A DNA stretch of 63,985 nt, the filler included, from Xylographa opegraphella (Eukaryota), in the NCBI GenBank assembly GCA_022813865.1. It is 3 parts of 3 records of this genome, joined end to end, with 100 filler letters (N's around TTAATTAATTAA, not from the genome) between each part and the next. Parts side by side here need not be neighbours in the genome. Positions count along the whole stretch, not along the records: positions 1 to 28,935 come from JALDZX010000121.1; 2 more parts are not named here. One strand, given 5' to 3'. Both the position numbers and the translations under genes were made by a program. Under the pieces are notes generated by a model, which saw only the letters and a list, made by a program, of their open reading frames with translations, ran no database searches and was not told the origin of the DNA. This document shows positions 14,956 through 19,235 of this stretch, piece by piece. The first letter of the stretch is position 1. Every line of letters begins with the position of its first letter.

Positions 14956-15280
14956 ATGCATCTCCCCCTCCTCGCAGCCCTCTACCTCACCCTCACCTCC
15001 CTAACCACCAGCGCCCCCATCGCCAGTTCGTCCCCCCGTTTCCCCCTATCCAAACCATACATACACCTCCACTCACCCCCCCCCCCCAGTTGCCCGACCC
15101 GGCGCTGCCGCCATCGACGCCCGCAGCCCCGCCGACTTCCAATGTCCGGAAGGCTGCCCCGTCGGCAGGCGCGACGCGCTCCCGCAGGAGTATGGTCTCC
15201 CGGTCGGGATCAGCAAGCGGGATGCCGTTGAGGGGGAGTATGAGGCTGTAGGGAAGCGGGAGGCTGGGGGTGGGGCTTAG
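14956..15280 (+). CDS. Small secreted Kex2-processed repeat protein (KEP), candidate RiPP precursor, 86 aa; exons 14956-15025 and 15090-15280
   Basis: Spliced translation: MHLPLLAALYLTLTSLTTSAPIAIARPGAAAIDAR-SPADFQCPEGCPVG-RR-DALPQEYGLPVGIS-KR-DAVEGEYEAVG-KR-EAGGGA*. It has a signal peptide ending near S/AP, a 64-nt GTTCGT..ACTCAC..CAG intron, a good start context (CAAACATG) and TATAAG about 95 bp upstream. Confidence 0.8.
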
Positions 15281-15898
15281 GTTTAGGAGCGGGCTGTGAA
15301 GGCGCAAGCGGGTGTGGGTGCGAGGGTGTCCTGGGCGGAGGGGGAGGGTGAGGTGTTGGTATGGAGGAACGTGGAATGGGATGGTAAGGGGAGGAGAACT
15401 TTTTTGATGAGTTAGCGCTGTATGTAGTGGTCGCGTTGTGGATGTAGCGGTGGATGGGTACACTGGCCGTTTCGCCCCTTTTCTTGGAGTGTTGCGATTT
15501 GTATTGTCTACGGGGCATTCACTTATGCCTTCCATTATTGTTGACGTAGCGGTCGGAGAGCCTGACGACAATGTGAGAATTCACAGACCAAAGCCATCGA
15601 TGGCATGGCGGTACTGAGCCCTAACTGGTGAGAGACTTTCTTCAGACATGGCTGGTGATGATAAAAATTTCTGGGAATATTGAAGACGCGCTAAGTAAGA
15701 CCCGAAGGATACCCGTAAATAGCAGGGTTGAAAGTTGATAAGTTGAGCAAATATCCTAGATAGCTTCCGGACAAAAAACTTCAATCGTATACAAACTCCA
15801 CCAGCCTCCCCCCCATAGCAACCCATTGAACTCACCCCCCACCAACCCCTCCCCCCCCCAATCGCAATCATCCACCCCTCCCCAGCTCTCCCCCCTCC

Positions 15899-16830
15899 CT
15901 ACCCCTCCCACACAAAACCCGGAAACACCTCCCTCACCCTCTCGAAATACGGCGAGCCAGGCAGACAATCCCTATAGCGCAACCTGCCATCAATACGATC
16001 CTTGGCATTAACATCGCGCCAACAAGCACTATGCTCGCGCGCGTAGGCCTCCAGCTTGCTCCAGTCGCGACACATGCGGCCCTGGTGATCGCCGGGCTAG
16101 CCCTGGTGCGCGAGCGGCTCGTAGCGCGGCGTGTCCTCGGCGAAGCAGTACGTGTCCTGCAGCAGGGCGTCGAGGCAGTGCAAGGCGTGCGAGAACGGCT
16201 AGGAGAGGTTCGCGAGCGGGAGGGGCGAGGGGGGGGGGCGAGGGGGGGGGGCGAGTTCGTAGAGGACTTTGTGGAAGNNNNNNNNNNNNNNNNNNNNNNN
16301 NNNNNNNNGGAGGGAGGGATGGGCTCGTACGAGGCAGTGGACGCTGTGGAAGGCGTTTAGAAAGTATAGGCCTAGGCTGTCGTCCCAGATGAAGCGTTGG
16401 GCGCGGTGGAGACCTTTGGAGGCGGTGTAGGCATCTGTGAGAGCTAGGTTGCCGAGGTCGAAGTGGAGAGCTTCCCAGGCGGCGGTGTCGTTGGGGTTGC
16501 TGAGGGAGCCGCCGTGAGTGAATCTTCTGGGGGTGTCGAAGACCAGGCCGGCTTTGGAATGTGGTCAATATGGGAGGTCGTGAAAAGAAGAAGGAGAGAC
16601 GCACCGTAGGGTGTGGGGCGATCGACAATTAAAGGAGAGCTATCTTGGCTCGAAGGGAGAGAGGAAAACGCAAAGAGAATATCGCTGAGGAGAGATAAGA
16701 TAAGAACAAGGACCAAGAACCCAAAATGCTTGAAATTGGAATTCGGAGCAGGGAGGCTCCAGCGGGGAGAAGCAGCTTCCTCGTCCGCACGAGCTTCCAC
16801 TACTTTGGAGTATTTGTAGTTGCTCGCCAT
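15899..16830 (-). pseudogene. DUF3328/UstYa-family oxidase with two in-frame TAG codons (pseudogene, recoded gene or sequence error)
   Basis: N-terminal TM helix (HFGFLVLVLILSLLSDILFAF); intron 16604-16552; exon 2 ..AAWEAL..GLYFLNAFHSVHCL; intron 2 runs into an N gap. Last exon: FHKVLYEL..NLS*PFSHALHCLDALLQDTYCFAEDTPRY..HQG*PGDHQGRMCRDWSKLEAYAREHSAC..VWEG*. It has two HxxHC motifs and a CRDW motif. The TAGs are at 16201-16199 and 16099-16097. Confidence 0.88.
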
Positions 16831-17516
16831 TGCAGGTAGAACTTTCGAGATACTGAGAAAGTGAAAAACCTTAGAGATAAAGGAGAGAAGCACAACGCTA
16901 TCAGATAAGAAACAGTGCCATCGTTGATTCCGAGAATGACCGACAACACATTTCAGGGGGGGGGAGAAAGTGGTGCATGAAATTTCGAGGGTGCTTCGCC
17001 CAAGCACACAAACCTTGCGACATCAGGCGGCAGAACCTAGCGCTGCTGCACAAGTAAGCATGTACCGTGACATCCATAGCTGAAGGTTACATCCCTCAGC
17101 CTAGGCGATGCTGAAAGAGAAGGAGACAAGAGAGTACGAGGAGCAGATGTGTAATGTTTCAAGAAGTAGAAATTAATTACGACTGTAGTTACAGTCATAA
17201 TACCGAAGGCGTAGTCCTAGCCTTGTGGTTACGGCGCGGAACGACTCGGAACGACTTGGAACACTTTATTTGCTAACGGGCCATCCCATGTCGGATCAGG
17301 ATGCGGCCGGAATCCACGGCCTGATCATACGCATGATTAAGCAAAAAAAAAGACTGCTAGTATTGCAAGAAGTAGATGGCAGTACTAGGGAGGTAGTATT
17401 GAAACCTATACAACTTCTTCAATCCATTATACAAAAGGACTGCATTCCCGACACGACTTAGCATATTCGAATTGTATCTTTCTCTTGTATCCGTTATTTC
17501 AAGCTCTCCAAGCTCC

Positions 17517-19235
17517 CTACTGTTGCAATTTTGGCGTAATGAAGGACTCGAGGTACTGCGCCAGCTTTGTACCCTCGTGCAAGCCAGCAGCAAACCCCAA
17601 AATGCCATCCGGCCGGATAACAAGCACAGCGCCCTCATCCGCCGAAACCCCAAGACGAACGTGCGCCGTTTCGTCCACGTCATAAAATGCATCCCCAAAG
17701 CGCCTGACACCAAGGACTTCGTCGGCCTGCACTCCTGGGCCCGCGATGACCGTGAGGAAAGTGAAAGCCTCTGTCAAGCGCGATGTGAAGCTCTCCGGAC
17801 TGTCGATGTATCCGCGAAAAGCCTGTAATTTGAAAAGCGTACGAACGGGTGAGCCGGCGAAGACTGCGATCCACAGCTTGCCGTTGTTCTTGGTGGCCTG
17901 TTGGAAGCGTATGGGGAACTTGGAGCCGGGGCGGCGTACGAGCACATCGGGTACTCGCCAACCCGGCTGAACAGCCGAGGTTGAGGATTCTCTGATCAGT
18001 GTGTTGGCCTCATAATGTACCCCCAGGCCTGTTGTGAATTGTGCAGATGACTCCAAGAGCTCTCCGAGGATTTTATTGGGGTCGCCGTTGTAGCGGGGTG
18101 GTAGTCTGCCGGAAATGAGTGTGGACATGGTCTTGTCGAGCTCGATTAATTGTTGTGCTACTGCTCGGCGTTCCGTCGAGTAAGTTTCCAGCACGGAGTC
18201 GGCGTACCAGCCTTTGAGGACGCCAATGATTTTCCAGCCCAAGTTCACAGCGTCGTGCATGCCTGTGTTCATACCCTGAGCAGCACCGGAAGAGTGGGTA
18301 TGGCCAGCATCCCCTGCCAGGAGAATACGCTCTTTAGTATGAAAGCTGTCGGCAACTCGTTGGCCAATAGAGTAGAGTGTCCACCAATCCACAGTAATGA
18401 ATTCGAGCTCGAACGGAGCAAGAGCCTTCACAGCCTCTTCCTTCACCACCTCTTCGCTGATGTGCTCACCGTGCTTCTCATAAATTTCGGGTGGTATGGA
18501 GAAGCCGATCCTTGTGCGACCGTGATCTTCTGCAACCCACAGAACGTTCCCGTGCCGGTGTGATTCGATGGACCCGTAGCCTAGACGTGCGCCTGGCATG
18601 TTTGTCTTGACGACAGCATCCATACGAATCCAGTGTAGGACCGATTCGTCTTTGACTGTGTCGCCTATGAAAGGAATTTCTGCGATGGTTCGAACTGTGG
18701 AATGGCCTCCGTCAGCCCCAATAATGAACTTGCTCTGTACTGTCATCTTTTCTCCACTATTTTCTTGCACTTCTGCCGTAATCTTGTAGCCACTCGAGCT
18801 CTCATTGACAGTGAAGCCAATCAGCTTTGTGTTGCTCTGTATATTGCTTCCGAATCCTTCAGCTGCGTCGCGAAACACGTCTTCCGAATATTTCTGTCGG
18901 ATGTTCAGACAATAGTCGAAGTATGTGTCAAGAGGCTTGCTAATAAAGCCCCAACCCCTGCCGTTGATGCGTTTACCATCGCGGTATGTCACAGCGCTGC
19001 GACCGACAAGGCCAATTTGGGCCAGAGCTTCGCCTAGTTCGAGTTGATCAAGCATCTCCAATGTGCGAGGATAGAGTACACATGCCCGTCCATACATGCC
19101 CTGAGTGCTTTTGTCGTACTGTTCGACGGTGTAGGTTTTGATACCCATGCGAGCCAGCTGGTATGAGAGGAGGAGACCCACAGGGCCGCCTCCACATATG
19201 AGGACGTCGACTTGCATAGTAGTACGTTGAGCCAT
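17517..19235 (-). CDS. FAD-dependent monooxygenase, phenol hydroxylase-like (FAD_binding_3 plus C-terminal thioredoxin-like domain), intronless
   Basis: VDVLICGGGPVGL, YGRACVLYPRTLEML, IIGADGGHSTVR, YSIGQRVA..RILLAGDAGHTHSSGAAQGMNTGMHDAVNLGWK and C-terminal VIRPDG. First ATG at 19235. Confidence 0.92.
   Translation of the reverse strand: MAQRTTMQVDVLICGGGPVGLLLSYQLARMGIKTYTVEQYDKSTQGMYGRACVLYPRTLEMLDQLELGEALAQIGLVGRSAVTYRDGKRINGRGWGFISKPLDTYFDYCLNIRQKYSEDVFRDAAEGFGSNIQSNTKLIGFTVNESSSGYKITAEVQENSGEKMTVQSKFIIGADGGHSTVRTIAEIPFIGDTVKDESVLHWIRMDAVVKTNMPGARLGYGSIESHRHGNVLWVAEDHGRTRIGFSIPPEIYEKHGEHISEEVVKEEAVKALAPFELEFITVDWWTLYSIGQRVADSFHTKERILLAGDAGHTHSSGAAQGMNTGMHDAVNLGWKIIGVLKGWYADSVLETYSTERRAVAQQLIELDKTMSTLISGRLPPRYNGDPNKILGELLESSAQFTTGLGVHYEANTLIRESSTSAVQPGWRVPDVLVRRPGSKFPIRFQQATKNNGKLWIAVFAGSPVRTLFKLQAFRGYIDSPESFTSRLTEAFTFLTVIAGPGVQADEVLGVRRFGDAFYDVDETAHVRLGVSADEGAVLVIRPDGILGFAAGLHEGTKLAQYLESFITPKLQQ

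Follow-up and report, generated by a model that had tools for sequence, protein, structure and literature searches.

Asperipin-2a of Aspergillus flavus is a dikaritin, one of the cyclic fungal peptides made by UstYa-family (DUF3328) oxidases. It derives from the precursor AprA and the single DUF3328 oxidase AprY, and has FYYTGY as its core. A comparable arrangement is seen within a 63,985-nt stretch of DNA (hereafter the window) from Xylographa opegraphella (assembly GCA_022813865.1), a member of a genus of lichen-forming fungi, where a small repeat-peptide gene on the plus strand lies tail-to-tail with a UstYa gene on the minus strand, followed by a flavin monooxygenase gene. As in asperipin-2a, a multi-core precursor with a signal peptide and Kex2 sites (the signal peptide being putative here) stands beside one UstYa-family gene, with neither a tyrosinase nor a methyltransferase. 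The two differ in that the asperipin-2a core is unrelated to the xYESPVGIN motif of the window family, whose units vary in kind and begin with dipeptides of the Ste13 type, and in that the window oxidase gene is a predicted pseudogene. The X. opegraphella locus probably represents, in decayed form, a peptide pathway that is new but of this known type and that may be intact in relatives; the reading of the two genes as a dikaritin-like precursor/UstYa pair that is dead in X. opegraphella is assigned a probability of roughly 0.55.

Other described systems display both similarities to, and differences from, this locus. The ustiloxin (UstA/UstYa/UstYb/UstQ) and phomopsin (PhomA, with five DUF3328 proteins) pathways likewise combine a UstYa domain bearing two HxxHC motifs with repeated, Tyr-containing cores bounded by KR. 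Their cores, however, are of the form Y-x-I-x (YAIG, YVIG, YVIP) and carry a Tyr–Ile cross-link, whilst Y-x-I was not seen in the window family; nor was a tyrosinase, methyltransferase, P450 or second UstY gene found in the window. The small epichloecyclin cluster of Epichloe festucae (gigA, gigB, gigC and kexB) is similar in that a single DUF3328 protein acts on a precursor of the Kex2-processed repeat protein (KEP) type to form a ring through Tyr, and in that repeat number differs between species (PMC10540207). Its GigA units are, in contrast, 27-mers bearing LxKR sites, their cores (INFKIPYT, for example) have Tyr near the C-terminus, and the cluster includes a SET methyltransferase and a kexin of its own (PMC10540207), neither of which was seen at the window locus. 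A first-pass annotation of this DNA had proposed that its cores match no known dikaritin core, and no likeness to the YAIG, YVIG, YVIP or INFKIPYT types was indeed apparent. Closer to home, the lichen clans R1 and R2 of RiPPs (peptides made by the ribosome and modified after translation), together with singleton 'dikaritin homologues', share with the window locus the presence of UstYa/HxxHC signature genes in Lecanoromycetes (Pasinato & Singh 2025, PMC12048977); the locus described here differs in having a repeat-bearing precursor family beside the signature gene. The X. opegraphella assembly is among the 111 genomes of that survey, the main text of which describes no repeated core in its clans and does not contain the name 'Xylographa' (PMC12048977). 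A literature search by title and start of abstract returned no paper pointing to the locus; supplements may list it as an antiSMASH singleton.

The small gene (ATG at 14956, stop at 15278–15280; Table 1) yields, once spliced, a product of 86 aa. Its unspliced reading frame continues into an unrelated Pro/Arg-rich sequence; splicing restores a frame that aligns with a homologue (P0127, below) across the exon junction. The 86-aa product is letter for letter identical to 'hypothetical protein MMC26_007563 [Xylographa opegraphella]' (P0003), and the gene is therefore publicly annotated, having been overlooked by single-frame open reading frame (ORF) lists only. Thus, of the spliced, hidden and secreted precursor initially proposed, the splice and the reality of the gene are upheld, whilst its being hidden is not. 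The best 12-residue Kyte–Doolittle mean of the protein is 1.91, from residue 5, and corresponding N-terminal means of 1.91–2.57, used as a proxy for a signal peptide, are found in all three family proteins with a correct start. A profile search matched the 86-aa protein to no Pfam family.

Using this protein as a phmmer query against 1,835,955,588 representative proteins, six entries were recovered at E ≤ 0.001, comprising the query itself, three convincing relatives and two rows that were discarded. The relatives are P0127 (104 aa, E 2e-18, 63 % identity to the 86-aa protein), P0128 (182 aa, E 4.3e-14) and P0129 (265 aa, E 8.5e-12). Of the discarded entries, P0130 (1963 aa, 29 % identity) was set aside on its phmmer table row alone, and P0131 because of its 'FQCPEGLLLGRN' repeats and the possession of only a hexapeptide in common with the precursor. 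The latter protein, of 194 aa, has FQCPEG in common with the leader and otherwise resembles translated repetitive DNA.

All four family members possess a hydrophobic N-terminus, the leader FQCP[E/S]GCPVG[K/R]R and the same intron position. P0127 is spliced as in the window, P0128 apparently reads through the equivalent intron in frame, and the gene model of P0129 has a false upstream start. Beyond the leader, each of the four consists of Kex2-delimited units ending in KR or RR, with four, seven and eight units of at least 8 aa in P0127, P0128 and P0129, respectively. The commonest unit, x-x-x-x-[E/D/N]YESPVGIN[K/R]R, occurs in two copies in P0127, two in P0128 and three in P0129, and Gly/Pro/Val units such as ..GPVGKR stand alongside it. 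The four proteins together contain 21 units of 8 aa or more; 18 of these begin with X-[A/P], and 14 begin with two such dipeptides.

The window's own copy is reduced by comparison, with two degenerate units (14 and 11 aa, KR excluded) and a 6-aa tail. KEPs have been defined by a signal peptide (SignalP) and a minimum of three tandem repeats, each no shorter than 8 aa and bounded by KR, KK, RK or RR sites (Umemura 2020, PMC7329392); P0127, P0128 and P0129 have this number of repeats, and the two-unit protein of the window falls below it. The description of the small gene as a KR-delimited repeat precursor therefore holds for the relatives but not, by this count, for the window copy itself. Residues common to both window units are encoded by differing synonymous codons (GAC/GAT, GCG/GCC, GTC/GTA), which favours selection on the peptide.

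These findings bear directly on whether the 86-aa ORF is simply an artefact of gene modelling in DNA rich in C and poor in stops. All three plus-strand frames and two of the minus-strand frames are open across 14865–15280, and the protein lacks a Pfam family, as such an explanation would allow; set against this are the three homologues (E 2e-18 to 8.5e-12), with the same leader, intron position and unit architecture, and the synonymous differences between the two window units. This explanation is thus very improbable, and already largely refuted by the phmmer homologues. Judged from its sequence and that of its relatives, the small gene is a real member of a conserved family of predicted secreted proteins composed of Kex2-bounded units.

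The facing gene had been reported as a tail-to-tail DUF3328 gene with two HxxHC motifs, and this description was borne out, as the two genes are separated by 618 bp and the motifs HSVHC and HALHC are both present. They form the sole HxxHC pair in the window, making this the sole such gene in 64 kb; two HxxHC motifs are the criterion for RiPP-related UstYa members (PMC12048977). The search with profile PF11807 that had been suggested for the minus-strand gene gave 40.9 bits (E 2.7e-10, cut-off 25; read-through of 15899–16564, with X at stops), compared with 57.2 and 63.7 bits for orthologues P0004 and P0005. The predicted membrane anchor has a 19-residue Kyte–Doolittle mean of 2.56, from residue 37. 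A word-based search identified three matches among 365 candidates, two of them full-length and one a 127-aa fragment, and none of the three is an X. opegraphella protein of this gene. The full-length orthologues, MMC15_002962 of X. vitiligo (271 aa) and MMC34_002467 of X. carneopallida (272 aa), are both 73 % identical to the window gene. Alignment to orthologues places a coding jump at intron 2 (...HSVHCL to K-I-L-H-T-VLYEL) and a 5-codon insertion (PPPRP) within a C-run of exon 3. As the frame of the gene is kept, the 31-base run of N between these exons is regarded as a mask over real sequence, and not as an assembly gap of unknown size. A PDB sequence search with a UstYa orthologue returned no solved relatives at E ≤ 1.

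Relative to the two full-length orthologues, the window gene has no frameshifts and two in-frame TAG codons. Because these stand at Trp and Gln codons of the intact orthologues, the gene is, as assembled, a pseudogene in X. opegraphella, which agrees with the earlier suggestion that the two TAGs may mean an inactive locus in this strain. As the first TAG lies upstream of HALHC, any product would be without the second HxxHC motif. An interpretation in which an in-frame intron of 69 nt (GTCCTC...CCTAG, 16267–16199) terminates at its 3′ end with the first TAG was rejected, since the stretch is a conserved exon in both orthologues; under that interpretation the second TAG would persist regardless. 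With regard to sequencing data, a 239-nt contig of related run X2 (16041–16162, depth 2.2) has G for A at 16099 (plus strand), within the second TAG, giving a coding CAG, and the sequencing pieces placed on 14600–16277 (80 % likeness) are nearly all poly-G/poly-C matches at 15053–15113 and 16212–16253. Both TAGs are at CpA sites, the context of repeat-induced point mutation (RIP), a process that mutates C to T in fungal repeats. Two such sites are no proof of it, and the G+C content of the UstYa gene (~55 %) does not indicate general RIP.

From the gene models, family memberships, breaks and homologue repeat architecture observed above, a pathway can be proposed in which proteolytic processing, the relation of UstYa to its substrate and the chemistry are inferred from established knowledge of Kex2 precursors and UstYa enzymes. 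The plus-strand gene would be a KEP, belonging to a small family encountered so far only among close relatives. Its product would enter the endoplasmic reticulum and lose its signal peptide, and Kex2 would cut after each KR or RR, whereupon the peptide ends would be trimmed by a dipeptidyl aminopeptidase of the Ste13 type and a carboxypeptidase of the Kex1 type. The peptides so freed in the relatives would mainly be nonapeptides of the form [E/D/N]-Y-E-S-P-V-G-I-N, and in those with an intact UstYa oxidase, membrane-anchored and facing the lumen, the peptides would most likely be cross-linked through Tyr in the secretory pathway. The whole would comprise two genes of dikaritin type, as for asperipin-2a. 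In X. opegraphella, the nonsense-mutated oxidase and the precursor shrunk to two degenerate units would leave the pathway dead, and it is this combination of a dead oxidase and a shrunken precursor that fits a pathway in decay.

The strongest argument for linking the UstYa protein to this putative substrate is gene position, by analogy with other fungi. In a set of 1461 fungal genomes, the position directly beside a KEP gene is where DUF3328 genes are most frequent (Umemura 2020, PMC7329392); for 31.8 % of 9399 DUF3328 genes a KEP is encoded no more than 15 genes away, DUF3328-linked KEPs show an enrichment of Tyr in their repeats (65.6 % as against 38.2 %), and a single DUF3328 protein suffices for asperipin-2a (PMC7329392). 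The modern test for the dikaritin class looks for a multi-core precursor neighbouring a UstYa gene that has two HxxHC motifs, and this is found in the window; the older definition, which comprises five genes (PMC12048977) and includes accessories such as a tyrosinase, a methyltransferase and a transporter or peptidase, does not describe it.

A number of observations weigh against a dikaritin-like pair. The adjacency of precursor and UstYa genes is known from the window's locus alone, and X. vitiligo and X. carneopallida have an annotated UstYa yet no precursor in a word-based search; in these species the precursor may be unannotated, absent or located elsewhere. That search, among annotated proteins of 34–109 aa, returned only the 86-aa protein itself and no homologue. 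Tyr is present in 13 of the 21 units, leaving the others without it, and in the window's own copy there is no conservation of the residue two positions past Tyr. A Pfam scan covering 40 ORFs throughout the window, each either 110 aa or longer or else a piece of the UstYa gene, identified no tyrosinase, methyltransferase, transporter or regulator. The two TAGs, for their part, are known from the assembled sequence only. Finally, X-Ala or X-Pro following Kex2 sites is a hallmark of unmodified alpha-type pheromone precursors.

This final point leads to the possibility that the product of the small gene is an ordinary repeat protein processed by Kex2 and Ste13, releasing unmodified linear peptides with a signal, pheromone- or effector-like role, and that the UstYa gene is beside it by coincidence or acts on another substrate. 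In precursors of the alpha-factor type, Ste13 takes off the X-Ala/X-Pro motif that follows a Kex2 site (PMC7329392), and because this dipeptide motif has been described for alpha-type pheromone precursors, a linear-peptide function is a serious rival. It gains from such dipeptides opening 18/21 units, from the precursor ORF still being open although the oxidase is dead, and from 78 % of 7878 KEPs being without a DUF3328 gene within 15 genes (PMC7329392). In addition, an MF_alpha cluster appears at 0.83 amongst the ESM Atlas look-alikes of P0127, although all scores are ≤ 0.84 and thus under the 0.9 lead threshold. Alpha-type pheromone precursors and unmodified KEPs (yeast MF-alpha, Ppg1/Ccg-4) resemble the window family in having a signal peptide (putative in the latter), KR or RR followed by X-Ala/X-Pro, and short repeated peptides. 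The window family differs, however, in that neither MF_alpha nor any other Pfam family was matched at E ≤ 0.1 by any of its four members (P0003, P0127, P0128 and P0129), and pheromone precursors are almost never found beside a DUF3328 gene. Similarly, ascomycete alpha-pheromones carry a Trp/Cys motif, and by eye the peptides considered here are without such a Trp/Cys-rich core. When one adds that the small gene directly adjoins the sole UstYa gene in 64 kb, in the very position at which DUF3328 genes peak around KEP genes, and that the invariant repeated core includes Tyr, the production of purely linear peptides, serious as it is, appears unlikely.

The third gene, the flavin monooxygenase, had been described as intact, and it is so, consisting of an uninterrupted ORF with PF01494 (FAD_binding_3, 207.4 bits) and PF07976 (phenol-hydroxylase C-terminal dimerisation, 58.1 bits) domains; the query used for it spanned 17520–19241, and thus included two extra N-terminal residues. 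The solved structures to which it is most closely related are phenol 2-monooxygenase 8r2u (E 1.7e-54), VibO 7yj0, 1pn0/1foh and the 3-hydroxybenzoate hydroxylase 2dkh. A bolder extension of the dikaritin-like reading would have all three genes form a minimal cluster, with this neighbouring phenol hydroxylase tailoring the peptide, for example by hydroxylating Tyr in the role taken by the tyrosinase in ustiloxin synthesis. Such enzymes hydroxylate phenols and the cores carry Tyr, which would suit this role; the best solved relatives, however, act on small phenols, and the monooxygenase is without a signal peptide. The flavin enzymes of ustiloxin synthesis are of a class other than phenol hydroxylase. 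They have been described as 'flavin-containing monooxygenases' (PMC12048977).

Genomic context offers a further comparison. The UstYa and monooxygenase genes are adjacent, as judged by consecutive tags, in X. carneopallida (MMC34_002467/002468) and X. vitiligo (MMC15_002962/002961) as well as in the window, which speaks for a three-gene cluster; given how closely these species are related, simple synteny may account for it. Against membership, orthologues of the monooxygenase are present in X. bjoerkii and X. trunciseda, for neither of which is a UstYa orthologue listed, and 795 relatives at E ≤ 1e-30 are spread across unrelated fungi. On a 67-kb metagenome contig, an 81 %-identical copy stands with no UstYa or precursor gene within 10 kb and no other neighbour in common with the window. 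Likewise, neither gene was detected (tblastn, E ≤ 0.01) at any of 71 monooxygenase homologue loci (553 kb). Two metagenome loci, L001 and L002, with a monooxygenase 81 % identical, were compared with positions 1–28935 of the window by tblastx; they have the monooxygenase alone in common with it, and were consequently unusable as an 'empty site' for the precursor/UstYa pair. As its conservation extends far beyond that of the other two genes, and it occurs elsewhere without them, the monooxygenase is unsupported as a pathway member and is probably a mere neighbour; the three-gene cluster put forward in the first-pass annotation is accordingly improbable. Overall, the initial observation of these genes is confirmed, and its interpretation is partly supported. 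In the protein collection, neither the monooxygenase (best match 84 %) nor UstYa (best match 73 %) has a 100 %-identical X. opegraphella protein, and the precursor has one; the former two genes thus seem to be without a deposited X. opegraphella protein.

Table 1. Positions of the features of the precursor/UstYa locus and of other genes in the window
Feature	Position	Strand	Description
Precursor exon 1	14956–15025	+	Met and hydrophobic N-terminus (MHLPLLAALYLTLTSLTTSAPIA); phase 1 at end
Precursor intron	15026–15089	+	64 nt, GT..AG, GTTCGT...CCCAG
Precursor exon 2	15090–15280	+	Leader ...FQCPEGCPVGRR, units DALPQEYGLPVGISKR and DAVEGEYEAVGKR, tail EAGGGA, stop 15278–15280
Spacer, precursor to UstYa	15281–15898		618 bp, tail-to-tail
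UstYa gene, three exons	15899–16830	-	Exons 16830–16605, 16551–16331 and exon 3 ending at stop
UstYa exon 1	16605–16830	-	Met, predicted cytosolic N-terminus, one predicted membrane anchor (GFLVLVLILSLLSDILFAF)
UstYa intron 1	16552–16604	-	53 nt, GTGCGT...AAAG; frame change between two tblastn segments
UstYa exon 2	16331–16551	-	AGLVFDTPRRF...FHSVHCL; first HxxHC motif, HSVHC, from 16348
UstYa intron 2, visible 5′ part	16309–16330	-	Donor GTACGA
Run of N	16278–16308		31 bases; masks ~2 codons at the start of UstYa exon 3, together with the 3′ end of intron 2
UstYa exon 3, visible part	15899–16277	-	HALHC from 16189; PPPRP insertion; stop 15899–15901
First in-frame TAG	16199–16201	-	Trp in both orthologues; just upstream of second HxxHC
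Second in-frame TAG	16097–16099	-	Gln in both orthologues
Monooxygenase, class A flavoprotein, phenol 2-monooxygenase-like	17517–19235	-	Single exon, intact, 572 aa + stop
Tsr1 ribosome-biogenesis GTPase-like	2834–5224		
GFO/IDH/MocA (Gal80-like) oxidoreductase	8622–9935		
Alpha-galactosidase	10712–11785		
BING4/Utp7 WD40 protein	23100–24828		
Fatty-acid desaturase	27303–28292		
PI-specific phospholipase C	57957–59929		

With regard to the remainder of the window, the nearest other genes to the locus are that for the alpha-galactosidase and an orphan at 21183–22628. The orphan, on the minus strand, consists of two abutting frames (155 + 325 aa, with one stop or a short intron between them) that match no Pfam family, and its N-terminus (..CPLHGLPIEIHTLILLQLD..) appears F-box-like by eye. 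None of the six housekeeping or metabolic neighbours listed in Table 1, from the Tsr1-like GTPase to the phospholipase C, is typical of secondary metabolism. An ankyrin-repeat gene at 6068–8158 (minus strand) has weak, below-cut-off N-terminal matches of the SesA/PigL_N type, and a similar weak PigL_N and ankyrin pair lies at 500–2249 (plus strand); both look like fungal NLR/het-type genes. A 28-kb block at 29000–57400, of 18–35 % G+C, resembles RIP-degraded retrotransposon DNA, and its sole ORF of at least 110 aa is a remnant of a copia-type reverse transcriptase (PF07727, 50387–50827). This AT-rich block is flanked by paired 44-base runs of N (28936–28979/28992–29035 and 57371–57414/57427–57470), and a second short run, of 19 bases, is located at 37924–37942. 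For the contig bearing the precursor, the protein database records a length of 28,935 nt, equal to the last window position ahead of the first pair of N-runs; the gene-rich left part may therefore be a single contig, with the N-runs joining it to the AT-rich block.

UstYa signature genes occur throughout lichen-forming fungi, and the dedicated survey, as it describes its own results, found no repeat-bearing precursor for them and termed this a mystery (PMC12048977). It is tentatively proposed, at somewhat less than even odds, that Xylographa and its closest relatives possess a new family of UstYa-cyclised peptides with the core [E/D/N]YESPVGIN, for which X. opegraphella would be a natural knock-out. 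If true, this would be the first lichen-fungal pathway of dikaritin type with its precursor identified. The locus adds one pathway to a known kind, introduces no new principle and appears non-functional in this genome, making it a lead of moderate interest towards a lichen peptide of sister species. A repeated, Tyr-containing core beside a UstYa gene nonetheless would provide a concrete peptide mass to seek in Xylographa with an intact oxidase, and the dead copy in X. opegraphella would serve as a natural comparison to species that keep the pair intact.

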